Positions 901 to 16,591 of a stretch of 16,591 nucleotides of DNA are shown in pieces. Origin of the DNA: a virus (Duplodnaviria; Heunggongvirae; Uroviricota; Caudoviricetes); the IMG/VR virus record IMGVR_UViG_2718217897_000003, one strand, 5' to 3'. Position 1 is the stretch's first letter; the number at the start of each line of letters is the position of its first letter. The notes beneath the pieces were generated by a model. It was not told the DNA's origin. It did no database searches and saw only the letters and a program-made list of their open reading frames with translations. Position numbers and translations under genes: made by a program.

Positions 901-1304
901 GATCGTATGTGCCTTTATGATTGGTCTGTAGATAGTGTAGAGCAGAAAAGAAAAGGTGGAGTCAGAACAGGATGAAAGTCGGAGGATAAAAGTCAGTTCA
1001 AGTATGGAGGATTCAGTGGTTACCACCAGGAGCTTGCAATGGGGACAGCGAATACTAACGGCAGCCACCGATAAATTTCAAAAAAGAGAATATACCTAAT
1101 ATTCAACTAAACGGTGGCATCTTCAATATAATATATTAAAGCCCTCATGGAGTTACCCGGAAGGGCCTCCATGTCCGTAATTCCTACTTATGTAGGAAAT
1201 GTTGTACAGAACATTTATTATAATCCTATTCAATTATAATAATCATGCCATTATTATATTTAAACACTAGAGAGTGTCGTTGGTATTTAATGGGGGAAGG
1301 TGAG

Positions 1305-1622: not shown

Positions 1623-1781
1623 GAATATTTTTTGGTAAGCGTCAAATATGCGCGTTCTGGCTGTGCGTAGCCGGAACCTGTGGGAGCACGATGCCGATAA
1701 GTGAAAGGCATCGTGCTATGAAGGAGGATTCTATCGATGTGGTCAATGGAAGACGGTTACCAGAGATAGGGCTTATGCATA

Positions 1782-1808
1782 AAAAAATAAGCCCGTGTAA
1801 GGGATATT
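1782..1808. other. Prophage attL core (P2-type att core; identical to the 3' terminator end of the cyaR sRNA gene)
   Basis: AAAAAATAAGCCCGTGTAAGGGA matches the P2 att core as I recall it and the reverse complement of the cyaR 3' end. Sequence to the right diverges from cyaR and leads into int, so this is the phage-derived duplicate, not a complete cyaR. Confidence 0.7.
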
Positions 1809-1887
1809 TAGGGTGTCACCAGTAGGGGCTTTCAACGGTACAATGCGGGTTTGAGCGGCATAAATTACCACTGAAAGCCCTTAAACG

Positions 1888-2901
1888 TTACTCTACTGTG
1901 GACACTGTGTGGACACTCTCGGCCTCAGTACCACCTCTTAGCGGATTAAGAGAAATGGCGTCCTGAAGGTACTCTGGCGCAAAATGAGCGTAAACCATAG
2001 TTTGCTCAATCCGCGTGTGACCTAGTATCCGTTGTAGCGTGATAATACTTCCTCCATTAATCATGAAATGAGTGGCAAAGCTGTGCCTTAGTGCATGTGT
2101 GGCTTGCCCCGTTGGCAAATCCGGTTTTATTGCTTTCATTGTTCGTCTGAAGCGAGGGTAATCAGCATCAGGGAATAAAAAACCTCGTTTGTTATCCGCG
2201 ATCATTTTGGCAACAGCCTCTGAGATCGGGACGGTGCGTGGTTTGTTTGTTTTCGTTTTAACAAACGTGACGCGGTTATGGATGATATTTTCTGCTTTCA
2301 AACGAGCTGCTTCTCCCCAACGTGCTCCTGTACTCAGGCAAAGAATCGCAATCTTTTTATTGTCGCCGTCAAGTGCTGCAAGCAGTAAGGCAATTTCTTC
2401 CTGTGTGAGATAGCCTGTTTCTGGTTTTTCCTCCTTAAGCCTCTTTGTCCCTCTGATAGGGTGCTCACCAAAGAATAACTCCGCTTCAATCAGGGCTGTA
2501 AACATGCCGCTAATACATGTTAAATCACGATTGATACTCGAAGGTTTAATACCCTGACTTCTTCGGGTGGCGCAGTACTGGCTGATAAGGGATTTCGTGA
2601 TTTGAAATGCGCATGGGTCATTCGTTATTTTTGTGAAGATTTCAATTTTTCCAAGATTAGATTTCCCATGCTCTTCGTGTTTACCCTTTAAATCCCACCA
2701 GATCTGTGTCAGTTCCGACAGACGTCGTTTGTCTGTTGGTTTTGATAGCCATTCTTTATTGTGGTGGTTGTACAACGTGTATTTTTCGAAAGCGACAGCT
2801 TCGCTTTTCTTATCAAACTTCCTACGGATGCGTTTTCCATTACGTCCAGTAGGGCGGATGTCCACTTCATATCGACCATCATCGAGTTTTTTGATTGCCA
2901 T
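1888..2901 (-). CDS. int: P2-type tyrosine integrase (337 aa)
   Basis: Protein MAIKKLDDGRYEVDIRPTGRNGKRIRRKF ... HALRHSFATHFMINGGSIITLQRILGHTRIEQTMVYAHF carries the R..H-x-x-R..Y tyrosine recombinase motifs. GGAGGG lies upstream of the ATG (complement at 2899-2901); stop complement at 1888-1890. It sits next to the att core. Confidence 0.95.
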   Translation of the reverse strand: MAIKKLDDGRYEVDIRPTGRNGKRIRRKFDKKSEAVAFEKYTLYNHHNKEWLSKPTDKRRLSELTQIWWDLKGKHEEHGKSNLGKIEIFTKITNDPCAFQITKSLISQYCATRRSQGIKPSSINRDLTCISGMFTALIEAELFFGEHPIRGTKRLKEEKPETGYLTQEEIALLLAALDGDNKKIAILCLSTGARWGEAARLKAENIIHNRVTFVKTKTNKPRTVPISEAVAKMIADNKRGFLFPDADYPRFRRTMKAIKPDLPTGQATHALRHSFATHFMINGGSIITLQRILGHTRIEQTMVYAHFAPEYLQDAISLNPLRGGTEAESVHTVSTVE

Positions 2902-3016
2902 CAGAAAACCCTCCGAGTGGTACTTTTTTTTGCTACTACTAATCGCTTTTTTCGTGGTGGCTGAAATTTAGCCACCAATAGTAGGCACTTGTGATGAATA
3001 TATTCACGATAAATTG

Positions 3017-3316
3017 TTAACCAGTCTTTTGACCGGAGTGGGGCGACGTTGTTTCGTTTTGCCCAAAGTGTGCGAGAGCGGGCGCAATTTGCCCGGCTTC
3101 TGGAGCTACCTGATCAGTCATGAACCACAAAGTATATTTAGTAAATCTAGGATGTTGTAAGACCTTCATTATGGCTTCAACTCCAGCGTTTTTTGACCGG
3201 CTCTCATAGCTCGAAAGTGAGCTGTAGGCTACACCAGTTAATTCACTGAATTCTTTACGGTTTAACCTTTCAGATTCACGGATTAGCTTCAACTTCTCCG
3301 AAACGTCTATTGACAT
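3017..3316 (-). CDS. C: Immunity repressor, P2 C-like (99 aa)
   Basis: Protein MSIDVSEKLKLIRESERLNRKEFSELTGVAYSSLSSYE ... FTKYTLWFMTDQVAPEAGQIAPALAHFGQNETTSPHSGQKTG. The C-terminal half resembles P2 repressor C as I recall it, and the N-terminal half is helix-turn-helix-like. It is divergent from cox, as in the P2 switch. The ORF-track start at 3388 is an upstream extension. Confidence 0.85.
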   Translation of the reverse strand: MSIDVSEKLKLIRESERLNRKEFSELTGVAYSSLSSYESRSKNAGVEAIMKVLQHPRFTKYTLWFMTDQVAPEAGQIAPALAHFGQNETTSPHSGQKTG

Positions 3317-3393
3317 AATTACTCCGATTGCGTAATTTCTTGCTGATAGTGTGAAATGTTGTGCTTCTGGAGTTATCCTTTTAGGCAATAATT

Positions 3394-3412
3394 AGCCATT
3401 AGGAGCCATTAG
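3394..3412. promoter_or_regulatory. Candidate repressor operator: tandem direct repeat AGCCATTAG x2 with 10-bp period in the C/cox divergent promoter region
   Basis: AGCCATTAG occurs at 3394-3402 and 3404-3412, between the divergent C and cox starts. P2-type repressors bind direct-repeat operators; the assignment is by position and repeat structure only. Confidence 0.4.
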
Positions 3413-3437
3413 AAGCACTAAGGGAGAATCGTAGCAG

Positions 3438-3713
3438 ATGAATAGACAGCTTGTAAGCGTGACTGATGCCGTGCCTTATCAGGAGTTTGCAAAACTCATT
3501 GGTAAAACTCCAAGAGCTGTAAGGGGCATGATTGAGAAAGGGAAATTACCAGTTATTGAGATTACTGACCCTCAGTCAGTATCGGGGCGTGCTGGTGAAT
3601 ATTGGGTATACCTTCCGGCATGGAATAACGGACTAAAACTGGCTTATGAAAGCCGTCCTAAAGAGATTCGTGACGGCTGGTTGATGTGGTTAGGTCTCGG
3701 TGAACCACGTTAA
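3438..3713 (+). CDS. cox: Cox (early-operon repressor/excisionase, 91 aa)
   Basis: Protein ... PYQEFAKLIGKTPRAVRGMIEKGKLPVIEITDPQSVSGRAGEYWVYLPAWNNGLKLAYESRPKEIRDGWLMWLGLGEPR closely matches P2 Cox as I recall it. First gene of the rightward early operon. Confidence 0.9.
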   Translation: MNRQLVSVTDAVPYQEFAKLIGKTPRAVRGMIEKGKLPVIEITDPQSVSGRAGEYWVYLPAWNNGLKLAYESRPKEIRDGWLMWLGLGEPR

Positions 3714-3723
3714 GGAGAACCGT

Positions 3724-3894
3724 ATGAATGAGCCTCGTTGTATTGCTCAGTTATTGCGTAACGAAAGCCCTAGGGCGATTGACTTCACCATCACCCACGG
3801 TAAGGGGCGTAAGGGAATCATTATCCGCACCAAAAAACAGAGTCCGTTAAAAAAGGCTCTGACCTTTCTGAAAAGCCGGAGGGTCTGGAAATGA
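3724..3894 (+). CDS. Small early protein, P2 orf78 position (56 aa)
   Basis: ATG at 3724 with GGAG 9 nt upstream; stop overlaps the B start (ATGA at 3891-3894). Called by position in the P2 early operon. Confidence 0.55.
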   Translation: MNEPRCIAQLLRNESPRAIDFTITHGKGRKGIIIRTKKQSPLKKALTFLKSRRVWK

Positions 3895-4391
3895 CAGTGA
3901 TGACGCTCAATCTCGTTGAAAAACAGCCAGCAGCTATGCGCCGGATAATTGGTAAGCATCTGGCCGTCCCTCGCTGGCAGGAGACATGCGATTATTATAA
4001 TCAGATGATGGAACGCGAACGGCTAACGGTTTGCTTCCATGCGCAGTTAAAACAGCGTCACGCAACGATGCGTTTTGAAGAAATGAACGACGTCGAACGT
4101 GAACGGCTGGTTTGTGCAATTGATGAATTGCGTGGGGCATTCTCAAAACGCCGTCAGGTTGGCGCAAGTGAGTATGCATATATTAGTTTTTTAACAGTCA
4201 GTCAGCGTCGTACTTTATTTATGCATGCCGGATTGACTGAAAAAGAATTCAACCAGCCATACTGGCGAATTAATGAAGAATCATGTTACTGGCGTGATGC
4301 TTTATTCCGTGCATTACGTGAATTATTCAGCCTGTTTGAGTATGCACCGACAATTCTGACGTCGGTAAAACCAGAGCAATATCTGCATTAA
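3891..4391 (+). CDS. B: Replication protein B (helicase-loader-like, 166 aa)
   Basis: 166-aa product MTVMTLNLVEKQPAAMRRIIGKHLAVPRWQETCDYYNQMMERERL..., matching P2 gpB in size, position and, as I recall it, sequence. Confidence 0.88.
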   Translation: MTVMTLNLVEKQPAAMRRIIGKHLAVPRWQETCDYYNQMMERERLTVCFHAQLKQRHATMRFEEMNDVERERLVCAIDELRGAFSKRRQVGASEYAYISFLTVSQRRTLFMHAGLTEKEFNQPYWRINEESCYWRDALFRALRELFSLFEYAPTILTSVKPEQYLH

Positions 4392-4454
4392 ATAATTAAC
4401 CAGAGTTTTTAATGCACTTAATCGTGCGGGGCTTCTTTTTGCCTGGAGAAAGTC

Positions 4455-4679
4455 ATGCATACAGTTTCTGAAAACAAGTGCGGTAAATACGCATTACTGC
4501 TGCAACAGGCCAGAGCCGAAGCACATGCCGACGCAGCGACACGCTTTTCTTCTCATCTTGACGCCATGATTCGCCATATCACAAAGGCGGAGTTATCCCG
4601 CGTGGAGATAGTCGAGCTGCTCAGTCAGGAGTCGGAAAAATTTCACAATATCGGATTGTCTCGCGGGGAGGTGCTTTGA
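4455..4679 (+). CDS. Hypothetical early protein, P2 orf80 position (74 aa)
   Basis: ATG at 4455; stop overlaps the next start (TGATG). Conserved position between B and A. Confidence 0.6.
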
Positions 4680-4978
4680 TGTCCTGTTCTCATTCAGTTG
4701 TATTACTGAATAACGCCTTAAAAATCGCCGTTATGAAAAATGGCGATTTGTCTCTTATTCAACTTTGCCTTGATAAAGAAAAACGCGACATAACTGAATC
4801 TGTTATCGCGATTTATCAGAATGAATTAAACCTCCTGTCTGATGTGGTCAATTTACTTGTTAAACGCGCTGTATTCCACAAGCAAATTTCCTCAGTGGAT
4901 GAACTGACAAAATTAACGACAGAACTTGCCAGTTATTGCGCTGATGTATCCAGGAAACTTAACGATAAAAGGAGCTGA
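4679..4978 (+). CDS. Hypothetical early protein, P2 orf81 position (99 aa)
   Basis: ATG at 4679 overlaps the upstream stop; the ORF-track start at 4676 is a TTG one codon earlier. AAAAGGAG near its 3' end serves the next gene. Confidence 0.6.
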   Translation: MSCSHSVVLLNNALKIAVMKNGDLSLIQLCLDKEKRDITESVIAIYQNELNLLSDVVNLLVKRAVFHKQISSVDELTKLTTELASYCADVSRKLNDKRS

Positions 4979-4980
4979 TA

Positions 4981-5205
4981 ATGCCGGACAACGTAGATTT
5001 TATTCAGGAACAACAGGCTGAATTACTGGAGCGCCAGATTAACGCGGCAAGGGTAAAACATTGCGGTGCTTCTGCGCTGGTTTGCGAAGAGTGTAACGCG
5101 CCAATACCTGCTGCCCGTCGTGCGGCTTACCCGTCAGCCACGCGTTGTGTTTCCTGTCAGTCAGTCTTTGAAGCAAAAAACAAACATTACCGGAGAACGG
5201 CATGA
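4981..5205 (+). CDS. DksA/TraR-type C4 zinc-finger protein, P2 orf82 position (74 aa)
   Basis: AAAGGAG precedes the ATG at 4981. Four cysteines in CxxC ... CxxC arrangement (HCGASALVCEECNAPIPAARRAAYPSATRCVSCQ). Confidence 0.75.
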   Translation: MPDNVDFIQEQQAELLERQINAARVKHCGASALVCEECNAPIPAARRAAYPSATRCVSCQSVFEAKNKHYRRTA

Positions 5206-5477
5206 GTATTCGTATTGAAATTGGCGAACGTTATGTCGTTACCAGTGACAGCTTTCAGTTTATTCTCCACGAGAAAAAGAGAGCGGAAAGCGGTAAAAAC
5301 GCCGGTCAGGAATGGCTGGCGGTGGTTGGTTATTACCCGAAATTAAGCCAGCTCGTTTCCGGCCTGATGCATCACGATATTCTTACCGGAAGCGCAAAGT
5401 CTTTTGCTGATTTAAACGCGCAGGTTGAGCAACTCAGCAAGCGTTGTTCAGAGGCTTTTGGCTCATATGGCCGTTAA
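5202..5477 (+). CDS. Hypothetical early protein, P2 orf83 position (91 aa)
   Basis: ATGA overlap with the orf82 stop; its 3' end overlaps the A start by 11 nt. Confidence 0.7.
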   Translation: MSIRIEIGERYVVTSDSFQFILHEKKRAESGKNAGQEWLAVVGYYPKLSQLVSGLMHHDILTGSAKSFADLNAQVEQLSKRCSEAFGSYGR

Positions 5478-7749
5478 AGCCTCCGGGCGTTTTGTCCCTC
5501 CGTCAGCATTTGCCGCAGGCACCGGTAAGACGTTTACCGGTGCTTATGCATGGAACGCGCCACGCGAGGCCGTCGGGCGCGAAAGACCCCTTACACGTGA
5601 CGAGATGCGTCAGGTGCAAGGTGTTTTATCCACGATTAACCGCCTGCCTTACTTTTTGCGCTCGCTGTTTACTTCACACTATGACTACATCCGGCGCAAT
5701 AAAAGCCCGGTGCACGGGTTTTATTTCCTCACATCCACTTTTCAGCGTCGTTTATGGCCGCGCATTGAGCGTGTGAATCAGCGCCATGAAATGAACACCG
5801 ACGCGTCGTTGCTGTTTCTGGCAGAGCGTGACCACTATGCGCGCCTGCCGGGAATGAATGACAAGGAGCTGAAAAAGTTTGCCGCCCGTATCTCATCGCA
5901 GCTTTTCATGATGTATGAGGAACTCAGCGATGCCTGGGTGGATGCACATGGCGAAAAAGAATCGCTGTTTACGGATGAGGCGCAGGCTCACCTCTATGGT
6001 CATGTTGCTGGCGCTGCACGTGCTTTCAATATTTCCCCGCTTTACTGGAAAAAATACCGTAAAGGACAGATGACCACGAGGCAGGCATATTCTGCCATTG
6101 CCCGTCTGTTTAACGATGAGTGGTGGACTCATCAGCTCAAAGGCCAGCGTATGCGCTGGCATGAGGCGTTACTGATTGCTGTCGGGGAGGTCAATAAAGA
6201 CCGTTCTCCTTATGCCAGTAAACATGCCATTCGTGATGTGCGTGCACGCCGCCAGGCAAATCTGGAATTTCTTAAATCGTGTGATCTCGAAAACAGGGAA
6301 ACCGGCGAGCGCATCGACCTTATCAGTAAGGTGATGGGCAGTATTTCTAATCCTGAAATTCGCCGGATGGAGCTGATGAACACCATTGCCGGTATTGAGC
6401 GTTACGCCGCAGCAGAGGGTGATGTGGGGATGTTTATCACGCTGACCGCGCCGTCAAAGTATCACCCGACACGTCAGGTTGGAAAAGGCGAAAGTAAAAC
6501 CGTCCAGCTAAATCACGGCTGGAACGATGAGGCATTTAATCCAAAGGATGCGCAGCGTTATCTCTGCCGTATCTGGAGCCTGATGCGCACGGCATTCAAG
6601 GATAATGATTTACAGGTCTACGGTTTGCGTGTCGTCGAGCCACATCACGACGGAACGCCGCACTGGCATATGATGCTTTTTTGTAATCCGCGCCAGCGTA
6701 ACCAGATTATCGAAATCATGCGTCGCTATGCGCTCAAAGAGGATGGCGACGAAAGAGGAGCCGCGCGAAACCGTTTTCAGGCAAAACACCTTAATCGGGG
6801 CGGTGCTGCGGGGTATATCGCGAAATACATCTCAAAAAACATCGACGGCTATGCACTGGATGGTCAGCTCGATAACGATACCGGCAGACCTCTGAAAGAT
6901 ACTGCCGCGGCTGTTACTGCATGGGCGTCAACGTGGCGCATCCCGCAATTTAAAACGGTTGGTCTGCCGACAATGGGGGCTTACCGTGAACTACGCAAAT
7001 TGCCTCGCGGCGTCAGCATTGCTGATGAGTTTGACGAACGCGTCGAGGCTGCACGCGCTGCCGCAGACAGTGGCGATTTTGCGTTGTATATCAGTGCGCA
7101 GGGTGGGGCAAATGTTCCGCGCGATTGCCAGACTGTCAGAGTCGCCCGTAGCCCGTCGGATGAAGTTAACGAGTACGAGGAAGAAGTCGAGAGAGTGGTC
7201 GGCATTTACGCGCCGCATCTCGGCGCGCGTCATATTCATATCACCAGAACGACGGACTGGCGCATTGTGCCGAAAGTTCCGGTCGTGGAGCCTTTGACTT
7301 TAAAAAGCGGCATCGCCGCGCCTCGGAGTCCTGTCAATAACTGTGGAAAGCTCACCGGTGGTGATACTTCGTTATCGGCTCCCACACCGACTGAGCATGC
7401 TGCAGCGGTGTTAAATTTTATAGATGAAGGGATTCTAAGTTGGACCGAGCCAGGCATTATGAAGGTACTTAGAGACTTATTGAGTAATGAACTGAAATGC
7501 AGTAATCGTTCACAGCAGAGCTTTACTCCTTTCAATGGTCGAAGCTACTTTCCTGCCCCATCCGCCCGGTTGACAAGGCAGGAGAGAAAGACTATCCCGA
7601 AAATTAAGGTTCTTCTTGCACAAAGTGACATTCAGGCTAGTTATTGGGAGCTTGAAGCTCTCGCTCGCGGAGCTGTTTTGGATTTTGGGCATAAGCGTTT
7701 TAAATTTGATACCGATATCGACTTTTTTGACAGACAGCGTGAGTGGTAG
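5467..7749 (+). CDS. A: Replication initiation protein A (rolling-circle initiator, 760 aa)
   Basis: Protein starts MAVKASGRFVPPSAFAAGTGKTFTGAYAWNAPREAVGRERPLTRDEMRQ at the ATG at 5467 and carries an HxH-like motif (TPHWHMMLF) and a tyrosine-rich GYIAKYISKN region typical of gpA-family initiators. The ORF-track start at 5425 is an extension. The last 110 codons or so are AT-richer than the rest. Confidence 0.92.
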   Translation: MAVKASGRFVPPSAFAAGTGKTFTGAYAWNAPREAVGRERPLTRDEMRQVQGVLSTINRLPYFLRSLFTSHYDYIRRNKSPVHGFYFLTSTFQRRLWPRIERVNQRHEMNTDASLLFLAERDHYARLPGMNDKELKKFAARISSQLFMMYEELSDAWVDAHGEKESLFTDEAQAHLYGHVAGAARAFNISPLYWKKYRKGQMTTRQAYSAIARLFNDEWWTHQLKGQRMRWHEALLIAVGEVNKDRSPYASKHAIRDVRARRQANLEFLKSCDLENRETGERIDLISKVMGSISNPEIRRMELMNTIAGIERYAAAEGDVGMFITLTAPSKYHPTRQVGKGESKTVQLNHGWNDEAFNPKDAQRYLCRIWSLMRTAFKDNDLQVYGLRVVEPHHDGTPHWHMMLFCNPRQRNQIIEIMRRYALKEDGDERGAARNRFQAKHLNRGGAAGYIAKYISKNIDGYALDGQLDNDTGRPLKDTAAAVTAWASTWRIPQFKTVGLPTMGAYRELRKLPRGVSIADEFDERVEAARAAADSGDFALYISAQGGANVPRDCQTVRVARSPSDEVNEYEEEVERVVGIYAPHLGARHIHITRTTDWRIVPKVPVVEPLTLKSGIAAPRSPVNNCGKLTGGDTSLSAPTPTEHAAAVLNFIDEGILSWTEPGIMKVLRDLLSNELKCSNRSQQSFTPFNGRSYFPAPSARLTRQERKTIPKIKVLLAQSDIQASYWELEALARGAVLDFGHKRFKFDTDIDFFDRQREW

Positions 7750-7784
7750 TTGAAAAAACGGTTGAACGGGGTAACAATATGTTA

Positions 7785-7814
7785 TTGTTGAGGAATTGTT
7801 TGTTATGGTTTAAT
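7785..7814 (+). promoter_or_regulatory. Candidate sigma70-like promoter for the cargo operon (-35 TTGTTG 7785-7790, -10 TTTAAT 7809-7814), overlapping a palindrome
   Basis: Hexamers with 18-bp spacing about 25 bp upstream of the 7838 ATG; palindrome AACAATA-tgt-TATTGTT at 7773-7789. Pattern match only. Confidence 0.3.
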
Positions 7815-7837
7815 TTTTATACACGGCAGAAAAGCAT

Positions 7838-9061
7838 ATGAGCATGGTTGAATGGATAAGCCACGAGAAAAAAGATAGCCTGATACTATTTGTACATGGA
7901 TTAAATGGTGGTTTGGAAACATGGAACTTTAATAAAGAAATTTCATTTCCAAAACTATTAGCAGAAGATGAAGATATTAGCAACGTATTTGATATTGCAT
8001 GTTTCAATTATTTTACTAAATTCACACAAACGTATGCTAAAACGTCAGGATTCTTGGCTCGTATTTTCTTTAAGAAAAATAAGTTAGAGAGAAATTTACC
8101 AACTGATGAAATAGCTGAGTTATTGTATACTGAGATTAGAGTAACACTAAGTGATTACTCTCGAATTATAATAATCGCCCATAGTATGGGGGGGTTAATA
8201 TCAAAAAATCTAATTCTAAAAAAAGTTGAGCATGAGGAACAATCTAATATAATTGGATTCATTTCGTTAGCAGTCCCTCACTTTGGTGCTAAATTAGCGA
8301 ATATAACTTCAATGGTATCTTCAAATGCTCAGTTAGTAGATCTTGGATTGTTAAGTGAAGCGACTGATACATTGAATAGGCGCTGGATAAATTGTAGCAA
8401 AAAACTTCCTATCACTAGATATGTTTATGGATCTCATGACACTATAGTCGATAAAAAAAGCGCATTACCGATGGATAGTGAACGACATAACTCAATTGCA
8501 GTTAATGAAGGGCATAGCTCAATTTGCAAGCCCGAAAATAGCTCGTCTACAGTGTTTGTTGCGGTAAAGCAATTTATTCAGCAGATAAATTTAGAAGCAC
8601 CCAAGAAGATTTGCGTTGAGCGTTTTTCTGATGATAAACAATATGATAATGAGTATTTCGTCTTAAAAATGATTGTCGCAGATATACATCAGGATATCGC
8701 TCTGCATGCAAAGGAATATTATTATAATGCTGAGCTTGCGAGAAATATTTTTACGAGTGATTACGATAGAAAACAACTTGGTCATTTGTATTCTAAAATA
8801 AGGGAGATTTACCAGGAAGAGTATGAGCAATACATTGCAAATTCAATTTCCCCAGATAAATTTATTGCTGCTGTTCATAGACGAATAACCCAGGAGGATA
8901 AGTCGTCGTTAGATTCTCTTATAAAAAGTTTGGAAACGATACATAAGAAAGGAATGTTGCATCAACTGGCTAACAAAAATGACAGGGATATTGTCTGGTC
9001 ATCTGAAACCAGCGTAGAAACTTTGGAGCAATTACGGCGAGGTAATCATGAAGAAAAATAA
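7838..9061 (+). CDS. Cargo protein 1: lipase-like alpha/beta serine hydrolase with C-terminal helical domain (407 aa), candidate defense effector
   Basis: AT-rich ORF. Oxyanion-hole-like HGLNGG (res 20-25), nucleophile elbow AHSMGG (Ser116, the pentapeptide of Bacillus lipase A), candidate acid Asp201 (YGSHDTIVD) and His226 (NEGHSSI), in the canonical order. The C-terminal 150 residues or so are helical and K/E-rich. The stop overlaps the next gene by 14 nt. Confidence 0.75.
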   Translation: MSMVEWISHEKKDSLILFVHGLNGGLETWNFNKEISFPKLLAEDEDISNVFDIACFNYFTKFTQTYAKTSGFLARIFFKKNKLERNLPTDEIAELLYTEIRVTLSDYSRIIIIAHSMGGLISKNLILKKVEHEEQSNIIGFISLAVPHFGAKLANITSMVSSNAQLVDLGLLSEATDTLNRRWINCSKKLPITRYVYGSHDTIVDKKSALPMDSERHNSIAVNEGHSSICKPENSSSTVFVAVKQFIQQINLEAPKKICVERFSDDKQYDNEYFVLKMIVADIHQDIALHAKEYYYNAELARNIFTSDYDRKQLGHLYSKIREIYQEEYEQYIANSISPDKFIAAVHRRITQEDKSSLDSLIKSLETIHKKGMLHQLANKNDRDIVWSSETSVETLEQLRRGNHEEK

Positions 9062-9560
9062 CTTGCCGTATATACCTCTTGATGAAGAGTATAGTTTGAA
9101 TTTTGCTATGCTTGCCATTGCTATATCTATATTATCTCATAGCAAAAAAGGAGTGTTGTCATTAGATATTAATAAAATACAAATTTTTATGTATCTGATA
9201 AAAAATCCATCAAAAATTGATTGTGCTCTTACAGTTTCGGGGAAAAAGCCTGCTTGTGTCGAGTCCCAGTTAACTTATACAATAAAGAGTTTTTCATCAA
9301 ATGTAGATATCTTATTCGACAATTCCAAAGTGAAATATCTTATAAAAATTATGTCATTGCGGGGATTGCTCTCAGCTGAGAAAAAAAATAATGAGAGTGT
9401 TAAATTATTTTTATCTGAAAAAGGTAAGGAATTTGCTAGCTCATTGACTGATGGATATTTTAAAGAAATAAAACGACTAGCCGAAGCATTGTTACCGCTA
9501 CAAGCATTGCCTACCTCTAAGTTAAACTCTGTTATAAACAAAGTCTTCAAGGAGAAATGA
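9048..9560 (+). CDS. Cargo protein 2: small 170-aa protein of unknown function, possible adaptor or kleisin-like middle component
   Basis: ATG at 9048 lies inside the 3' end of gene 1, and ATGA overlaps gene 3 at 9557-9560, indicating translational coupling in one operon. AT-rich; no motif recognised by eye. Confidence 0.7.
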   Translation: MKKNNLPYIPLDEEYSLNFAMLAIAISILSHSKKGVLSLDINKIQIFMYLIKNPSKIDCALTVSGKKPACVESQLTYTIKSFSSNVDILFDNSKVKYLIKIMSLRGLLSAEKKNNESVKLFLSEKGKEFASSLTDGYFKEIKRLAEALLPLQALPTSKLNSVINKVFKEK

Positions 9561-11527
9561 TGAAATCATATCTCAATATCAATAGTTTGATTCTTGTTGG
9601 CGTTCGTAAAAACTACGTCACTACTTTTTATAAAGGTCTCAATGTTATCTACGGAGACTCTGACACAGGTAAGTCAAGTATTCTGGAGTTTATTAATTAT
9701 CTTTTAGGTGCTAGTTCTATAGATTTAGCAGATGAAATAAAAACATCAGTAAACTATGCTGCTCTTGAAGTAGTGATCAATGATACTGTATTCACAATCG
9801 TAAGAGATATCTATGATCATAAAAAATCAATAGAAGTTTATCGTTGTAAGTTTGATGATTTACATAAACACTTTCCGAAAAAATACGCCCCTAATTATAG
9901 CCCCTTATCAAATGTTGATGGCGTTTTTTCGGAGTTTTTACTTGATAGTCTTAATTTTCCAAAAATTGAAATTAAGGTGTCTCCTTCTAAAGCACATTCA
10001 CAGATGCGCAGGTTAAGCTTTAGAAATATATATAAATTTGTTTATGTAAGTCAGGATGATATTGGTAGTAAATCATTCTTACGATTGGAGGATTGGTCCC
10101 GTTACGCATTTACGAAAGAAGTTTTTAAATACATGTTCAATGTGTTGGATGAAAGCATCGCCAGACTCCAAGGTGAAATATCTGCAAAAAGTAGTTTAGT
10201 AACGGAACTAAATAAGAAGTATCAGATAATATCTGAATTTCTTCGCGATACAGACTATGAAACAATTGAATCAATTGATGATGAGATTAATAGGATAGAT
10301 CTTATTTTAGAAGAACTTGTTGCAGGTTTGTCTGCTCTCGATAAAAATATGAAAGCGGATTCCATGCAGTATACAGAATTGAAAGATGCCCACAATTTTA
10401 TTTCGCTTAAATACAAGGAGTGCATATTAAATATTAGCACGCTTGAGGATAAGATTGATAAATATTCGCGGTTAAAAAATGACTATGATAATGATATTGA
10501 AAAACTCAAAGCGATTAAAACAGCAAATTCTCGCATTGGTGTATTGGATAAGGAAGTATTTTCCTGTCCGATCTGTGATAGCCACATTAAAATAGATGAT
10601 TCCGATTTTCCATTTGAAATTTCATCAGAAAAAGATCTTAATGAAGAGTTGAATTCACTTAGTCGACGTAGACGAAATATTAATGACATGATCTCAGAAA
10701 TGTCATTTAAATTAAAAAAAGAATCTGGTTATAAAAAAGAATTAGATGAACAACTTGACGAGTTGAGAGAGTTAATTGACGAAGAAAGCCAGTCAATGAT
10801 TACACCATTCTTGACTCAGAGAGATTTTTATATTAAAGAGATATCAAAAAACGAGAAGGTTAGGGAGCAGTTAGTAAAAGATTTGAAGGTTAGAAACCAG
10901 CAAGAGGAACTGCTTGAAAAGCATCAGGTACTGATAAAAGATATTGAAACATTAACTGAACGCTTGGATGCGTTAAAGAAAAACGCACCTAGTATGGAAG
11001 GCATTTTACAAGGTTTAGGTGATAGATTTAGTCAGTATTTGAAGGGTATTAATATCAAAAACAGAACGGGGATAAAAATCTCTGAAAGATATTACACCCC
11101 TGTTATAAGAGGAAAGGAATATTTTAAAATAACGTCCGGAGGTTTGAGAACTATTTCTTCTATTGGGTATCTTTTGTCTATTCTTGATTATGCAATAGAC
11201 CATAATGTTAACCATCCTTTACTTTTGATATTTGATACGGTTGGTAAATATTTAGGGAAACAGACCAAGGAAAAATACTCAAAAGAAACTCTTGCAGTCG
11301 AGGATGACCTTGAGGGGATGTCAGACCCGATGAAGTATCAAAATATTTATGAGCAACTATTGAATACAGTTCAAAAAGCAGAAAGAAAAAATGTTCCGTG
11401 CCAGATTATATTAGTTGATAATGATTTGCCTAATTCGTTTTCTACTGGTGAACTTTCGAATATTATCGCTCATTATAGCTCGGTTGGTGAGGATGGTTTG
11501 CCTTTAGGTTTAATTGATGACCTTTAA
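9557..11527 (+). CDS. Cargo protein 3: SMC/Rad50/SbcC-like ABC ATPase with coiled coil and CxxC hook (656 aa)
   Basis: N-terminal Walker A GDSDTGKSS (K39), Q-loop-like VSQDD (Q166), a charged heptad-rich segment of about 350 residues with a single CPIC (C337/C340) near its middle, signature-like TSGG (526-529) and Walker B-like LLLIFD (555-560). Confidence 0.8.
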   Translation: MMKSYLNINSLILVGVRKNYVTTFYKGLNVIYGDSDTGKSSILEFINYLLGASSIDLADEIKTSVNYAALEVVINDTVFTIVRDIYDHKKSIEVYRCKFDDLHKHFPKKYAPNYSPLSNVDGVFSEFLLDSLNFPKIEIKVSPSKAHSQMRRLSFRNIYKFVYVSQDDIGSKSFLRLEDWSRYAFTKEVFKYMFNVLDESIARLQGEISAKSSLVTELNKKYQIISEFLRDTDYETIESIDDEINRIDLILEELVAGLSALDKNMKADSMQYTELKDAHNFISLKYKECILNISTLEDKIDKYSRLKNDYDNDIEKLKAIKTANSRIGVLDKEVFSCPICDSHIKIDDSDFPFEISSEKDLNEELNSLSRRRRNINDMISEMSFKLKKESGYKKELDEQLDELRELIDEESQSMITPFLTQRDFYIKEISKNEKVREQLVKDLKVRNQQEELLEKHQVLIKDIETLTERLDALKKNAPSMEGILQGLGDRFSQYLKGINIKNRTGIKISERYYTPVIRGKEYFKITSGGLRTISSIGYLLSILDYAIDHNVNHPLLLIFDTVGKYLGKQTKEKYSKETLAVEDDLEGMSDPMKYQNIYEQLLNTVQKAERKNVPCQIILVDNDLPNSFSTGELSNIIAHYSSVGEDGLPLGLIDDL

Positions 11528-11655
11528 TACTATACATGCATTTTTTTGAATTAGATTGCATGTGGATAATGAGTCTATTTAGTGAAGGGAAGGTTTTGTG
11601 TGACGTGACTTTCGATAAAATTCAACCGCATTAAAACCGCCCCATGAAGCGGGCG

Positions 11656-11674
11656 GGCGAGGCGGGGAAAGCAC
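11656..11674. other. cos site (19-nt cohesive-end sequence GGCGAGGCGGGGAAAGCAC) with flanking G/T-rich repeats
   Basis: The 19-mer matches the P2 cohesive end as I recall it, lying between the end of the rightward operon and the 3' end of Q, where cos sits in a P2 prophage. G/T-rich reiterated motifs follow at about 11700-11815. Confidence 0.65.
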
Positions 11675-11815
11675 TGCGCGCTGGCGGTGGTGCTGATTTT
11701 ATTTTTTAGCGTCTCAGCGCGTCGTGATGGCGTTTAGATTGTGCGCCGGGGCGTTGGTGTGTCTGCGGGGTGTTTTGTGCGGTGGTGAGCGTGTGAGGGC
11801 GTGATGACGGGGTGT

Positions 11816-11837
11816 AAAAAAGCCGCCCGCAGGCGGC
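11816..11837 (-). terminator. Rho-independent terminator downstream of Q (minus strand)
   Basis: GCCGCC-cgca-GGCGGC hairpin at 11822-11837, preceded on the plus strand by AAAAAA (a U-run on the minus strand after the stem), immediately 3' of the Q stop at 11843-11845. Confidence 0.55.
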
Positions 11838-11842
11838 GATGT

Positions 11843-12814
11843 TCAGCCGTTGTCAGTGTCCAGTGAGTAGTTTTTAAAGCGGATGACCTCCTGACCGAGC
11901 CAGCCGTTTATCTCACGGATCCTGTCCTGTAACGGGATAAGCTCATTGCGGACAAAGACCTTTGCCACTTTCTCAATATCACCCAGCGACCCGACGTTCT
12001 CCGGCTTGCCGCCCATCAACTGAAAGGGGATGCGGTGCGCGTCCAGCAGGTCTGCGGCACTGGCTTTTTTGATATTAAAAAAATCGTCCTTCGTCGCCAC
12101 TTCACTGAGCGGGATAATTTTAATGCCGTCGGCTTTTCCCTGTGGGGCATAGAGAAACAGGTTTTTAAAGTTGTTGCGGCCTTTCGACTTCACCATGTTT
12201 TCGCGAAGCATTTCGATATCGTTGCGATCCTGCACGGCATCAGTGACGTACATGATGTATCCGGCATGTGCGCCGTTTTCGTAATACTTGCGGCGGAACA
12301 GCGTGGCCGACTCATTCAGCCAGGCAGAGTTAAGGGCGCTGAGATATTCCGGCAGGCCGTACAGCTCCTGATTAATATCGGGCTCCAGCAGGTGAAACAC
12401 GGAACCGGGCGCGAAGGCTGTCGGTTCGTTGAAGGACGGCACCCACCAGTAAACATCCTCCTCCACGCCACGGCGGGTATATTTTGCCGGTGAGGTTTCC
12501 AGTCTGATGACCTTACCGGTGGTGCTGTAACGCTTTTCCAGAAACGCATTACCGAACACCAGAAAATCCAGCACAAAGCGGCTGAAATCCTGCTGGGAAA
12601 GCCACGGGTGCGGGATAAACGTTGAAGCCAGAATATTACGTTTGACGTAAATCGGTGAGCTGTGATGCACGGCAGCACGCAGACTTTTTGCCAGACCGGT
12701 AAAGCTGACCGGTGGCTCATACCATCTGCCGTTACTGATGCATTCGACGTAATCCAGAATGTCACGGCGGTCGAGTACCGGCACTGGCTCACCATGCTGA
12801 AAAATCAGCTTCAT
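11843..12814 (-). CDS. Q: Portal protein Q (323 aa as encoded here; 5' end abuts a deletion junction, possibly N-terminally truncated)
   Basis: Minus-strand ORF with host-like GC content in the expected place and orientation next to cos. From memory P2 Q is about 344 aa, so about 20 codons may be missing. Sequence directly upstream of its ATG is lysB-derived rather than gene P. Confidence 0.8.
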   Translation of the reverse strand: MKLIFQHGEPVPVLDRRDILDYVECISNGRWYEPPVSFTGLAKSLRAAVHHSSPIYVKRNILASTFIPHPWLSQQDFSRFVLDFLVFGNAFLEKRYSTTGKVIRLETSPAKYTRRGVEEDVYWWVPSFNEPTAFAPGSVFHLLEPDINQELYGLPEYLSALNSAWLNESATLFRRKYYENGAHAGYIMYVTDAVQDRNDIEMLRENMVKSKGRNNFKNLFLYAPQGKADGIKIIPLSEVATKDDFFNIKKASAADLLDAHRIPFQLMGGKPENVGSLGDIEKVAKVFVRNELIPLQDRIREINGWLGQEVIRFKNYSLDTDNG

Positions 12815-13075
12815 GTTGCGCTCACCAGGGCAGACAAAAACGAGCTGGCGCAGGTGGCACTGCGTCAGGAACTGGAAAACGCCGCGAAGCGTGAAGCTCA
12901 GCGCGAGAAAACCATCACGAGATTACTCAATGAAAACGAAGATTTCCGCCGCTGGTATGGCGCTGACCTGCCTGATGCTGTGCGCCGGTTGCACCAGCGC
13001 CCCGCCTGCACCGACGCCAGTGATTGTCCACAACGCCTGCCCGAAAGTGAGTCTTTGCCCGATGCCGGGCAGTGA
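12815..13075 (+). pseudogene. lysB: lysB remnant (Rz-like spanin, 3' portion only)
   Basis: The frame ending at 13075 encodes ...ALTRADKNELAQVALRQELENAAKREAQREKTITRLLNENEDFRRWYGADLPDAVRRLHQRPACTDASDCPQRLPESESLPDAGQ, but upstream of about 12815 the same frame is antisense to Q. There is no lysB start or N-terminal transmembrane region. The 5' boundary is approximate (plus or minus 30 nt). Confidence 0.6.
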
Positions 13076-13220
13076 CCCGCAGACGAACGGCGATTTAAGT
13101 GCCGATATCCGGCAGCTTGAGAACGCGCTGGCACGCTGTGCCAGCCAGGTAAAAATGATTAAACACTGTCAGGACGAAAACGATGCTCAAACCCGACAGC
13201 CTGCGCAGGGCGCTGACTGA
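12930..13220 (+). CDS. lysC: LysC (Rz1-like outer-membrane lipoprotein spanin, 96 aa), embedded in the lysB frame region
   Basis: MKTKISAAGMALTCLMLCAGCTS has a signal peptide and lipobox Cys; the rest is proline-rich. Embedded out of frame in lysB as in P2. Likely non-functional without full LysB. Confidence 0.7.
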   Translation: MKTKISAAGMALTCLMLCAGCTSAPPAPTPVIVHNACPKVSLCPMPGSDPQTNGDLSADIRQLENALARCASQVKMIKHCQDENDAQTRQPAQGAD

Positions 13221-13650
13221 TGCCGTCACGGTGCTGAAAACTAACCCCGATATGCTTCGGATATTCGTGGATAACGGGAGTATTGCCTCCACACTGGCGA
13301 CGTCGCTGTCATTCGAAAAGCGTTACACGCTCAATGTCATTGTGACCGATTTTACCGGTGATTTTGACCTGCTCATCGTGCCGGTGCTGGCGTGGCTGCG
13401 GGAAAATCAGCCCGACATCATGACCACCGACGAAGGCCAGAAAAAAGGCTTCACGTTTTATGCAGACATCAACAATGACAGCAGCTTTGATATCAGTATC
13501 AGCCTGATGCTGACCGAACGCACGCTGGTCAGTGAGGTGGGCGGCGCGCTGCATGTGAAGAATATCCCGGAACCCCCGCCGCCGGAGCCGGTCACCCGCC
13601 CGATGGAGCTTTATATCAATGGCGAACTGGTGAGTAAGTGGGATGAATGA
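13183..13650 (+). CDS. R: Tail completion protein R (155 aa)
   Basis: MLKPDSLRRALTDAVTVLKTNPDMLRIFVDNGS... matches P2 gpR in sequence as I recall it, and in size and position. Confidence 0.9.
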   Translation: MLKPDSLRRALTDAVTVLKTNPDMLRIFVDNGSIASTLATSLSFEKRYTLNVIVTDFTGDFDLLIVPVLAWLRENQPDIMTTDEGQKKGFTFYADINNDSSFDISISLMLTERTLVSEVGGALHVKNIPEPPPPEPVTRPMELYINGELVSKWDE

Positions 13651-14095
13651 GTTTAAGCGTTTTGAAGACCGGCTGACCGGGCTGATTGAATCGCTGTCAC
13701 CGTCAGGGCGTCGGCGACTGAGCGCCGAACTGGCGAAACGTCTGCGTCAGAGTCAGCAGCGTCGGGTGATGGCACAGAAAGCCCCGGACGGCACCCCCTA
13801 CGCGCCACGTCAGCAGCAGAGCGCCAGAAAAAAGACCGGTCGCGTTAAGCGAAAAATGTTTGCGAAACTTATTACCAGTCGTTTTTTGCATATCCGCGCC
13901 AGCCCGGAACAGGCATCAATGGAATTTTACGGCGGGAAGTCGCCGAAAATCGCCAGTGTGCATCAGTTCGGTCTGTCGGAAGAAACCCGGAAAGACGGTA
14001 AGAAAATTGATTATCCGGCGCGTCCTCTGCTCGGCTTTACCGGTGAGGATGTGCAGATGATTGAAGAGATTATCCTGGCTCACCTTGAGCGTTAG
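13643..14095 (+). CDS. S: Tail completion protein S (150 aa)
   Basis: MNEFKRFEDRLTGLIESLSPSGRRRLSAELAKRLRQSQQRRV... matches P2 gpS as I recall it; start overlaps the R stop. Confidence 0.9.
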   Translation: MNEFKRFEDRLTGLIESLSPSGRRRLSAELAKRLRQSQQRRVMAQKAPDGTPYAPRQQQSARKKTGRVKRKMFAKLITSRFLHIRASPEQASMEFYGGKSPKIASVHQFGLSEETRKDGKKIDYPARPLLGFTGEDVQMIEEIILAHLER

Positions 14096-14125
14096 TTTTA
14101 TCCAGGCAGAGGCTGATGCGCAATT

Positions 14126-14160
14126 AAACATTGAGCGGCCATGCTGGTCGCTCAATGTTT
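14126..14160. terminator. Perfect 12-bp-stem hairpin between convergent S and the membrane-protein gene; candidate bidirectional terminator
   Basis: AAACATTGAGCG-(11 nt loop)-CGCTCAATGTTT, 30 nt after the S stop and just before the minus-strand gene's stop. Only a short U-run (the stem's own TTT). Confidence 0.45.
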
Positions 14161-14166
14161 AGAGGC

Positions 14167-14952
14167 TTATGAGTGATTTTTATTTGATGCTTTGTATTCT
14201 ACAACCTTCTTATTGGCGTAAAGGAATTTTGTATATGACAGGAATATAACCAGACCTGAAATGAAATAGATGAGGGATATTATTAATAATGCTTTTTTTT
14301 GGCTGTTATTATCTTTAATTTCCTGACTTAACCATTCCGAGTCCTCCTCGTTTAGCTGTAAGAGCTTATTGCAGGCGATCTCAGGAAGTGTGTCTTTTAT
14401 AAATATGTTTCGTAGCCTCTTGCAATCGGCAAGGCTATAAGTTTTATTGAATTCAACTGTTTTATTGTTGAAGGATAAAAGAACTTTGTCACTATAAACA
14501 TAGTACATCATATTTTTATATGGTATGCCTATGGCATCTCTTACTATAGCGGATTGTTTGTTGTGTATATAACATGCGAAGAGAATATAAATAATGCTGG
14601 ACAGAATTACAATTATTGTTTTAATTATGTGTGGTGGTTTTGTTATGTCACCCCAGAAGCGAGTAAGAAAAAAATACGATGTTTTTAGTTTTCCATCAAT
14701 CAGCCCCTGCTGTATCATTCTCACATCTTCGATGCCTGATACATTGATTCCGTTAATTATTTTAAATAGTTGAATGTCGCGCCATTTTTTGTCGAGCATT
14801 TTTAACTTTCTGTCTGAATACTCAAAATTGAAATGATGTGCAATAAACCTCATAAGATTACTTTTACCAAAGGTAATAAATGTTAATGCTATTAATAAAA
14901 ATAGATACAAAGAGATAAACCACCACGCATTAGTCACATTATCACTGAACAT
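14167..14952 (-). CDS. AT-rich cargo gene: 261-aa integral membrane protein (about 3 predicted TM helices), unknown function, in the S-V slot (P2 orf30 position)
   Basis: ATG complement at 14950-14952 with GAGGAG 8 nt upstream on the minus strand. Hydrophobic segments WWFISLYLFLLIALTFITF, IIVILSSIIYILFACYI and ALLIISLIYFISGLVIFLSY. Opposite strand to the flanking tail genes. Confidence 0.8.
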   Translation of the reverse strand: MFSDNVTNAWWFISLYLFLLIALTFITFGKSNLMRFIAHHFNFEYSDRKLKMLDKKWRDIQLFKIINGINVSGIEDVRMIQQGLIDGKLKTSYFFLTRFWGDITKPPHIIKTIIVILSSIIYILFACYIHNKQSAIVRDAIGIPYKNMMYYVYSDKVLLSFNNKTVEFNKTYSLADCKRLRNIFIKDTLPEIACNKLLQLNEEDSEWLSQEIKDNNSQKKALLIISLIYFISGLVIFLSYTKFLYANKKVVEYKASNKNHS

Positions 14953-15035
14953 TACGCTCTCCTCGAATGTTGTATGGTCGTTCTACAAATGAATCCAGAT
15001 AGCATAACTTTTATATATTGTGCAATCTCACACGC

Positions 15036-15671
15036 ATGAACACTCTCGCAAATATTCAGGAACTCGCGCGCGCACTGCGCAACATGATTCGTACCGGCCT
15101 TGTCGTCGAAACCAACCTTAAAGCCGGTCGCTGCCGTGTGCAGACCGGTGGCATGTGCACTGACTGGCTTCAGTGGCTGACCCATCGTGCCGGACGTTCG
15201 CGCACATGGTGGGCACCTTCCGTGGGGGAACAGGTGCTGATTCTGGCTGTGGGCGGTGAACTCGACACGGCGTTCGTTCTGCCGGGGATTTATTCCGGCG
15301 ATAACCCCGCGCCGTCTGCGTCGGCGGATGCCCTGCATATCCGTTTCCCTGACGGGGCGGTGATTGAGTATGAACCCGAAACCAGTGCACTCACGGTAAG
15401 CGGAATTAAAACGGCCAGCGTGACGGCTTCTGATTCTGTTACTGCCACGGTGCCGGTGGTCATGGTGAAAGCATCAACCCGCGTCACCCTGGACACACCG
15501 GAGGTGGTTTGCACCAACAGGCTGATTACCGGCACGCTGGAAGTGCAGAAGGGCGGGACGATGCGCGGCAACATTGAACACACCGGCGGTGAACTCTCAT
15601 CAAACGGTAAGGTACTGCATACCCATAAACACCCCGGCGACAGCGGCGGCACAACCGGGAGCCCTCTATGA
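15036..15671 (+). CDS. V: Baseplate spike protein V (211 aa)
   Basis: MNTLANIQELARALRNMIRTGLVVETNLKAGRCRVQTGG... matches P2 gpV as I recall it. The ORF-track start at 15018 is a TTG extension; ATG at 15036. Confidence 0.92.
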   Translation: MNTLANIQELARALRNMIRTGLVVETNLKAGRCRVQTGGMCTDWLQWLTHRAGRSRTWWAPSVGEQVLILAVGGELDTAFVLPGIYSGDNPAPSASADALHIRFPDGAVIEYEPETSALTVSGIKTASVTASDSVTATVPVVMVKASTRVTLDTPEVVCTNRLITGTLEVQKGGTMRGNIEHTGGELSSNGKVLHTHKHPGDSGGTTGSPL

Positions 15672-16015
15672 CAGCGCGTTATCTCGGAATGAATTGCAGT
15701 GATGGCCTGACTGTCACTGACCTTGAGCATATCAGCCAGAGTATCGGCGATATCCTGCGCACACCGGTCGGCTCGCGGGTGATGCGTCGTGATTACGGCT
15801 CGTTGCTGGCGTCAATGATTGACCAGCCGCAGACCCCGGCGCTTGAGTTGCAGATTAAGGTCGCCTGTTACATGGCGGTGCTGAAATGGGAACCCCGCGT
15901 CACCCTGTCATCCGTCACCACTGAGCGCAGTTTTGACGGGCGAATGACGGTCACCTTAACCGGCCAGCACAACGACACCGGCCAGCCACTTTCGTTAACC
16001 ATCCCTGTGAGTTGA
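15668..16015 (+). CDS. W: Baseplate wedge protein W (gp25-like, 115 aa)
   Basis: MTARYLGMNCSDGLTVTDLEHISQSIGDILRTPVGSRVMRRDYGS... matches P2 gpW as I recall it; ATGA overlap with the V stop. Confidence 0.92.
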   Translation: MTARYLGMNCSDGLTVTDLEHISQSIGDILRTPVGSRVMRRDYGSLLASMIDQPQTPALELQIKVACYMAVLKWEPRVTLSSVTTERSFDGRMTVTLTGQHNDTGQPLSLTIPVS

Positions 16016-16019
16016 AACC

Positions 16020-16124
16020 ATGCCGATTATCGACCTGAACCAGCTACCCGCACCGGATGTGGTCGAGGAGCTGGACTTTGAAACCATTCTCGCCGAACGC
16101 AAGGCGACACTGATTTCCCTTTAC
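16020..16124 (+). pseudogene. J: Baseplate protein J, 5' fragment (first 35 codons only)
   Basis: MPIIDLNQLPAPDVVEELDFETILAERKATLISLY matches the gpJ N-terminus as I recall it. The frame then reads TPKTRNRKSRR and stops, and downstream sequence belongs to another gene in another frame. Confidence 0.75.
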
Positions 16125-16591
16125 ACACCAAAGACCCGAAACCGCAAAAGCAGAAGGTAAAACTGAAACGCAAAAAGAAAGAGAAACACCTGCGCGCACT
16201 GGAGCACCCGAACGCGAAACCGGTCAGGCAGAAGAAAGCGCCTAAAGTACCGGAAGCGCGTGAAGGTGAATACATGGCCGGTGAGGCTGACAACGTTTTT
16301 GCCCTGACCACGGTATATGCCACGAAAGCGCAGGCCATGCGCGCCGCTCAGGCGAAGTGGGATAAGCTGCAACGGGGCGTTGCGGAGTTCTCCATCAGTC
16401 TGGCTACCGGTCGTGCTGATATTTACACGGAAACACCGGTTAAAGTGTCAGGCTTTAAGCGCGTCATAGACGAGCAGGACTGGACAATCACTAAGGTGAC
16501 ACATTTTCTGAATAATAGCGGCTTCACGACGTCCCTGGAGCTTGAGGTCAGGCTTTCTGATGTGGAGTACGAAACAGAAGATGATGAGTGA
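16125..16591 (+). pseudogene. D: Tail protein D, 3' fragment (about 155 codons, no start), analogous to the K-12 yegZ remnant
   Basis: An open frame from 16082 to the TGA at 16589-16591 encodes ...KAQAMRAAQAKWDKLQRGVAEFSISLATGRADIYTETPVKVSGFKRVIDEQDWTITKVTHFLNNSGFTTSLELEVRLSDVEYETEDDE with no plausible start or RBS. It is the last gene before where ogr and attR would lie. Assignment to D rests on position and partial recollection. Confidence 0.6.

Follow-up and report, generated by a model that had tools for sequence, protein, structure and literature searches.

Positions 16020-16591 of the window, as we call the whole stretch of 16,591 nt that was analysed, are a deletion scar in a defective P2-like prophage, where the start of gene J is joined to the end of the hub gene D. 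With considerable confidence, we explain it as the product of an illegitimate deletion that arose de novo in a REL606-like ancestor, with its left end at a recurrent breakpoint in J. The scar itself is ordinary prophage decay and a new entry in the known series of P2 remnants, and no function was seen for it, the J' ORF having no family match and 'D no start codon. The part worth following is the recurrence of the junction and of the fixed endpoint in J. A full-text search of the literature found no paper on the J|D junction or on a hot spot in J.

The scar consists of the following features:
16020-16124, plus strand: J' fragment, codons 1-35 (MPIIDLNQLPAPDVVEELDFETILAERKATLISLY), with its ATG at 16020 and 0 mismatches to positions 11290-11394 of the intact phage P2_4A7b and to J of REL606
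16020-16160, plus strand: scar ORF of 46 aa, J codons 1-35 followed by 11 out-of-frame codons from D DNA (TPKTRNRKSRR), stop at 16158-16160
16121-16124, plus strand: junction with a 4-bp microhomology, TTAC, where the BLAST segments overlap by 4 bp (native sequences compared side by side)
16125-16591, plus strand: 'D fragment, the 3' 467 nt of the hub gene D (codons 233-387 and stop), with no start codon of its own

The J frame had previously been read as matching for 35 codons and then turning into unrelated residues and a stop, with a change of frame at about 16125. Alignment bears out both statements, the second one to the base: window 15036-16124 has 0 mismatches to P2_4A7b 10306-11394 (J is located at 11290-12198 there), and the J and D alignments overlap exactly in TTAC. 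This tetranucleotide is common to J (..CTTTAC|CCGG) and D (..GGTTAC|ACACC); native J reads ..TTTCCCTTTAC|CCGGAAG, native D reads ..AAAGTGGTTAC|ACACCAAAG, and the window reads ..TTTCCCTTTAC|ACACCAAAG. No Pfam match was obtained for the 46-aa ORF. The frame of D is open from 16100, with no stop until the TGA at 16589-16591, and window 16121-16591 represents the last 155-156 codons of the gene. The preliminary description placed here a second frame without start codon, in the position of the D gene that precedes ogr, and its homology to gpD holds in alignments to J and D. Specifically, 16121-16591 is 96.4% identical to P2_4A7b D (23303-23771 of a gene at 22610-23773), with entry at codon 232, and 100% identical to the REL606 'phage late control D family protein, missing N-terminus'. 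Pfam family PF05954 (Phage_GPD) is matched over profile positions 215-304 of 305 (E = 9e-7), with a score just under the gathering score because the D protein is truncated. Gene callers report an internal-ATG ORF of 105 aa (16274-16591) within 'D. In relatives with the same junction, ogr is found 46-82 bp 3' of the D stop. The DNA lost at the scar amounts to 11,908 bp relative to the intact phage and to 8,267 bp relative to REL606. The predicted removal of I, H, G, FI, FII, E, T, U and the 5' part of D is correct with respect to an intact P2-like phage, and J after codon 35 and D codons 1-231 are missing as well; its attribution to one deletion most likely does not stand, as the REL606 prophage already lacks FII 3'-E-T-U-D 5' through an FII'|'D junction of its own.

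Concerning the remainder of the window, yegS and yegR occupy positions 1-1800, and a P2-like prophage in prophage order extends from int to the final base, which is the last base of the D stop codon; ogr lies outside. The prophage occupies the P2-type att site that lies between yegR and yegQ, and carries the following landmarks:
1782-1808, plus strand: attL core, matching the P2 att core at 26 of 27 bases
1888-2901, minus strand: int, intact ORF of 337 aa
11657-11675, plus strand: cos cohesive-end sequence GGCGAGGCGGGGAAAGCAC, intact, read directly
12789-12794, plus strand: junction 1, Q'|'lysB, with a 6-bp microhomology; P2_4A7b 1141-8058 is gone
15036-15671 and 15668-16015, plus strand: V and W, intact baseplate genes 5' of the scar (REL606 annotation, Pfam)

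The attR core is located ~410 bp past the window end (10982-11009 in contig L009), which gives an element of ~15.2 kb. Its identity as a P2-like (Peduovirus) prophage is seen in the flanking att cores with int beside attL, and in the gene order C, cox, B, A, cos, Q...V W J...D ogr (collinear BLAST to P2_4A7b at 96-100% identity; REL606 annotation). Retained are int, C, cox, B and A, all of them intact ORFs, as well as cargo, a Q fragment, R, S, V and W, in line with the earlier view that immunity, replication, cargo and a few baseplate genes had been kept. The words 'domesticated remnant' used at that time are half right: a remnant it is, but nothing tested pointed to selection on it. Pfam matches were Phage_base_V and Phage_spike for V and GPW_gp25 for W. 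The cos sequence, presumably identical with the P2 cohesive end, is situated where both ends of the linear P2_4A7b record meet, and the ori motif GCGCCTCGGAGTCCTGTCAA is found at 7317-7338, inside A. No Rfam family for a structured RNA reached its gathering score in the window.

With P2_4A7b (NC_049390), P2 and intact Peduovirus the window shares gene order, cos and late genes that are 96-100% identical where it has them, V-W-J' being 100% identical to P2_4A7b, while its int/C module and cargo differ from those of that phage. The late region corresponds to P2_4A7b in three segments (window 11656-12794 = 1-1140; 12789-16124 = 8059-11394; 16121-16589 = 23303-23771). Between them, P2_4A7b 1141-8058 (P, O, N, M, L, X, Y, K and lysA; 6,918 bp) and 11395-23302 (J 3'-I-H-G-cargo-FI-FII-E-T-U-D 5'; 11,908 bp) are missing, so this is not a complete plaque-forming P2-like prophage. 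Since J beyond codon 35, I, H and the genes for sheath, tube, tape measure and hub are gone, the element cannot build tails, and with junction 1 added it can neither build heads nor lyse. Nor is it an R-type tailocin, as FI, FII, T, U, H, G, holin and endolysin are absent and V, W, R and S alone are left. Mitomycin C would be expected to release neither particles nor tailocins, as sheath, tube, capsid and lysis genes are missing and immunity of the P2 type is not SOS-inducible.

The slot between A and cos (window 7838-11527) is the usual P2 cargo hot spot and differs per relative: in the window and REL606 it holds an ABC-three-component system and an AAA ATPase; L008 has a DUF7380 protein there, L016 one with DUF4238 and L019 an AAA_13 protein. 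A 261-aa ORF without Pfam family lies between S and V on the minus strand (14167-14952); it is kept in P2_4A7b, REL606 and most relatives and is missing from L008.

The J'|'D junction is not private to the window prophage. The exact 46-aa product was read on 23 contigs (33 index blocks) and a one-residue variant on 24 further contigs (41 blocks), which adds up to no fewer than 47 independent contigs with the junction, drawn from assemblies of NCBI, ENA and Logan. Five assemblies (L009-L013) match the window at 99.98-100% identity across the junction, over lengths of up to 10.5 kb. The junction is nevertheless a rare allele, present in none of 5,426 complete RefSeq E. coli genomes, no GTDB representative and none of the IMG/VR contigs searched. 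P2-like W+J sequence occurs in 1,560 of the same 5,426 genomes, and truncated J is rare among them: 1541 of 1563 complete-genome records matching W+J cover at least 80%. Its absence from these collections is what one would predict of an error in assembly or sequencing, such as a chimeric join or collapsed repeat, but we give this explanation practically no weight. The same junction was recovered from at least 47 contigs of different projects and assemblers, a 4-bp overlap cannot produce a de Bruijn misjoin, and the longest contig in the cluster formed by the 46-aa product and three near-identical variants measures 4.73 Mb.

The defective prophage of E. coli B strain REL606 (NC_012967 2,100,4xx-2,122,4xx) has the locus, int, C, cox, B, A and the ABC-three-component cargo in common with the window, as well as the 261-aa ORF, V, W and 'D-ogr, and the shared DNA is 99.95% identical (BLAST segments 1-12601, 99.95%; 13934-16124, one difference at the block edge; 16121-16591, 100%). 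In contrast to the window, REL606 keeps full J, I, H, a glycosyltransferase cargo, FI and FII' (~80 first FII codons). Its FII'|'D junction joins P2_4A7b 18974 to 23282 at a 7-13 nt match (ACCGGCG..AACGG), compared to 11394|23303 in the window, and the two forms do not represent the same deletion event; a shared D boundary was rejected, as the two lie 21 bp apart (that of REL606 upstream) and use different matches. REL606 in turn lacks window 12602-13933 (1,332 bp; the Q' end, the lysB/lysC remnant, R and most of S) via a 7-bp match. Since the two forms are not derivable one from the other, both descend from an ancestor with junction 1 and the FII'|'D junction.

Apart from the deletion, window 13937-16591 shows zero differences from REL606. 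To the right, identity to REL606 is 99.98% over 10 kb in L009, a contig with the same allele, through 'D-ogr-attR-yegQ-yegP-baeRS-mdtD, and a REL606-private SNP is situated 90 bp right of the junction. We regard it as highly probable, from these alignments, that the deletion arose de novo in a B-like clone. An illegitimate deletion in a P2-like prophage would have joined J after codon 35 to D codon 232 via TTAC, in a REL606-like ancestor, with a loss of most likely 8,267 bp in this lineage. It would have left a nonsense-terminated J' ORF of 46 aa and a promoterless, start-less 'D before ogr. With less certainty, the same junction may have formed more than once, and its left end may lie in a breakage- or slippage-prone tract of J, T3C3T3AC3G2, that many rightward deletions would share.

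An identical junction was found on five or more haplotype backgrounds, distributed over three chromosomal loci (yegQ, pflB and cpxP-fieF):
yegQ site: J35|D232 in L020, with the complete head and lysis gene set
beside pflB: J35|D232 in L008, L014 and L015, with a 331-aa integrase and DUF7380 cargo
between cpxP and fieF: J35|D232 in L021, with full head genes, and in the further decayed L019 and L022-L024, with a 326-aa integrase

The cpxP-fieF loci were retrieved with a variant of the 46-aa product (P0005) that is labelled Salmonella enterica serovar Poona. The int regions at pflB and in the window are 66.5% identical (called lengths 331 and 337 aa), and V-W-J'-'D of the copies in other backgrounds is 3-6% different from the window. 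In the other junction haplotypes the nearest differences from the window lie at distances of 33-160 bp on the left side and 18-90 bp on the right side, and the tracts shared around the junction are no longer than those of random intact-phage pairs (medians 33 bp left, 21 bp right). Two SNPs common in intact phages, 33 bp left (C/T) and 18 bp right (A/G), appear in all four combinations among the junction bearers. Neither a junction-specific SNP nor an extended shared haplotype was seen among the bearers compared.

A de novo origin in the B-like clone implies that the junction probably formed at least twice. The competing reading, which we hold to be rather unlikely, is that of a single ancient J|D deletion, whose late region spread by homologous recombination or by helper-assisted transfer with exchange of integrase modules; it is about as doubtful that such a deletion reached three att sites and many haplotypes, with the window allele as one descendant. 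Homology for such exchange would be at hand, as phages that differ in their int modules have late genes of 96-99% identity, and infecting P2 recombines with the defective prophage of E. coli B, giving P2 Hy dis. The J|D allele is also the most widespread J' variant, as an old allele would be, and L008 (pflB) and L019 (cpxP) share both the J|D junction and an S endpoint at P2_4A7b 8946, which hints at their common descent. Against a single ancient deletion, the DNA around the window allele is 99.98-100% identical to REL606 for at least 2.2 kb leftwards and 10 kb rightwards, the REL606-private SNP included, and for the allele to have come from any of the sampled donors, crossovers would have had to fall within 33-160 bp of the junction on its left and within 18-90 bp on its right. 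A junction-specific SNP and an extended shared haplotype are both absent. Outside the B-like lineage, one old junction whose flanks were later gene-converted up to the heterology boundary is possible too, as it also fits the haplotype pattern.

The left end of the junction belongs to a short tract:
16109-16127, plus strand: T3C3T3AC3G2 tract of J (native sequence ACTGATTTCCCTTTACCCGG), recurrent left breakpoint with at least 12 right partners after ..CCCTTTA

J' ORFs were collected by a protein search with the 46-aa ORF, which returned only short targets of 37-79 aa (the properties of this sample being deduced from the output); in-place frameshifts, adapter chimeras and contig-end partials were set aside. 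In this census of short targets, 11 of the ~21 J' ORFs with non-J tails (up to 79 aa) break exactly after Y35. At least 12 different deletions begin on the left at codon 35 of J, and their right partners were identified from DNA or from translated reference DNA (positions in P2_4A7b):
J 3' end, 12156: L016, from DNA
I, 12309: L152, from DNA
H, with no position given: L154, from DNA
H, with no position given: P0018, from the protein tail only
FI, 17895: L150, from DNA
FI, 17951: L132 (IMG/VR), from DNA
FII, 18885: L025 and L026, from DNA
FII, ~18974: P0013, from the protein tail only
T, ~20.9 kb: P0009, from the protein tail only
D, 23303: the junction of the window, from DNA
D, 23457: L149, from DNA
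ogr, 23867: L027 and L028, from DNA

The joints show 1-7 nt of microhomology, and all of them fit a crossover after ..CCCTTT or ..CCCTTTA; a few additional breaks in J lie 1-10 nt from the codon 35 site. The events sit on left-flank haplotypes that differ from each other (5-13 differences per 450 bp) and are therefore independent. We lean, by a narrow preference, towards the 12-nt tract TTTCCCTTTACCC at J codon 35 being a genuine hot spot of mutation in the P2-like prophages that E. coli and Salmonella carry, with J35|D232 (TTAC, 8-12 kb apart) arising independently at least twice. To the same slight degree we favour that rightward tail-gene deletions were seeded there repeatedly, and that J35|D232 formed once in the E. 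coli B-like clone and at least once elsewhere. What counts against recurrence is that a 4-bp match over 8-12 kb offers no known reason for a repeated identical outcome. Deletions from the origin nick of M13 and pC194 and slippage hot spots at short repeats likewise combine one fixed end with many partners and 0-7 nt of microhomology. Unlike in M13 and pC194, no nickase site, origin, IS end or palindrome was found at J codon 35, and a search for a hairpin or repeat at the J site gave just a 4-bp stem (fold z-score -0.1). Should the junction and its left breakpoint really recur, inactivation of prophages in this very common phage family would be no random walk but partly deterministic, through a sequence- or enzyme-specific break. 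E. coli B still carries both partner sites, and a simple PCR assay could then find the cause of the break.

Many public J' ORFs are single-base frameshifts in T3C3T3AC3G2 (P0006, P0012, P0015, P0030, P0038, P0040, P0042 and P0051). These variants could be homopolymer sequencing errors or real slippage, and they fit a slippage-prone or stall-prone sequence without proving it. Two J' truncations that differ from each other, at codons 35 and 45 (P0014 and P0017), both join ogr within 1-3 nt of one position (CCTTTA|TGCCAGC). In L025, a tandem duplication of ~560 bp (6001-6750) holds the J'|FII junction, resulting in two copies of the joint and of FII/E' fragments. Endpoints other than J codon 35 also recur with different elements and partners, at P2_4A7b 277, 8946, 10664/5, 18974 and 23282/23303 (L005, L008, L016, L019, L025 and L132); for ~18 junctions in 33 kb the chance expectation is ~0.1 coincidences, and several of these endpoints have ..TACCGG.. 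motifs.

Several candidate causes of the break at J were set aside. A pseudo-origin for the P2 A nickase was rejected, as the ori motif is unlike the J or D sites, and a termination model would keep CCCGG, which is lost in the junctions. Self-targeting by a type I-E CRISPR system was dismissed by reasoning alone: on the bottom strand, CCCTTT offers an AAG PAM, but the deletion would leave both the protospacer and the PAM in place and so bring no escape. CCGG is the top one of 256 tetramers near the endpoints, which are not independent of each other; 11 of 29 endpoints lie within 8 bp of it, compared to 4.9 expected, an excess that is not significant after correction, and restriction at CCGG was not retained. 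The TTAC at the junction raises another possibility, to which we assign a very low probability, that a TTAC-acting enzyme such as an IS608-type TnpA of the IS200/IS605 family made the joint through two insertions, or one insertion and recombination. Insertion by IS608-type TnpA takes place 3' of TTAC and its excision is precise; the two native sites both have TTAC at their ends, and at the joint TTAC leads directly into the flank from the right. However, an IS end is missing from all 12 J-anchored junctions examined, the other partner sites end in TTAT, GTAT, ACAC, ATAC or ACA instead of TTAC, and no IS200/IS605 element was seen in any locus examined. The window junction is the only one with TTAC, and an IS200/IS605 rearrangement was rejected.

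Judged by sequence, the 15.2-kb remnant keeps every cis site for excision, rolling-circle replication and helper packaging, since cos, the ori motif and the att core are all intact, and it is conceivable that the ~15.2-kb element is excised, replicated and packaged with a helper. It would then be a helper-dependent, mobilisable mini-P2, a satellite-like element that has shed its structural genes and in which the J|D architecture is selected. The intact ORFs of int, C, cox, B and A, both att cores and the retention of ogr agree with this, as do similar Q'..S/V-W-J'..'D-ogr architectures at the three loci and at the IMG/VR locus L132. We find it improbable all the same, because decay has continued along different routes in other carriers of the junction (L019 has lost V and W, L022 has lost A) and L020 and L021 keep the full head set, leaving J'|'D-ogr as the only conserved architecture. 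A monomer of 15.2 kb, moreover, fits neither the P2 head nor the P4 head. As far as the letters go, the element resembles P4-like satellites in having a cos that a P2 helper would recognise and predicted integration and replication functions of its own (cos, int, A, B and the ori motif). It has no homologue of the satellite-specific genes sid, psu and epsilon and no alpha primase; its non-cargo ORFs are all P2 homologues, and its cargo is the ABC-three-component system.

As a scar, the junction matters little beyond the stage that it adds to the decay series known from the yegQ-yegR locus. As the preliminary description had stated, a shorter remnant is present at the same site in E. coli K-12, where the cryptic PR-X (ogrK-yegZ) likewise keeps the D 3' end and ogr. 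A D' boundary common to yegZ and the window was also considered and is rejected: the K-12 match starts at window 16379, compared to 16121 for the D' of the window, and the two are not products of the same deletion event. K-12 retains 213-219 bp of D (window 16379-16591) compared to 467 bp in the window, and its left joint corresponds to window 1799 inside the att core, with everything from int to D codon ~316 gone. In BL21(DE3) the site is empty. The series runs from intact phage through the E. coli B type, the window type, and the J|D2 and J|ogr types to K-12 ogrK-yegZ and the empty site of BL21.

Further-reduced remnants were observed at yegQ-yegR, with the architectures int-C-cox'|W-J'|ogr' (L027/L028), A-P'..V-W-J'|'D-ogr with a second D site (L149) and yegR|V-W-J'|'H-G..FI-FII (L154), and with K-12 and BL21 added, these remnants make up a series of graded decay. 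The K-12 endpoint in the att core (L006 4813-4815) is of another kind than the microhomology joints found elsewhere.
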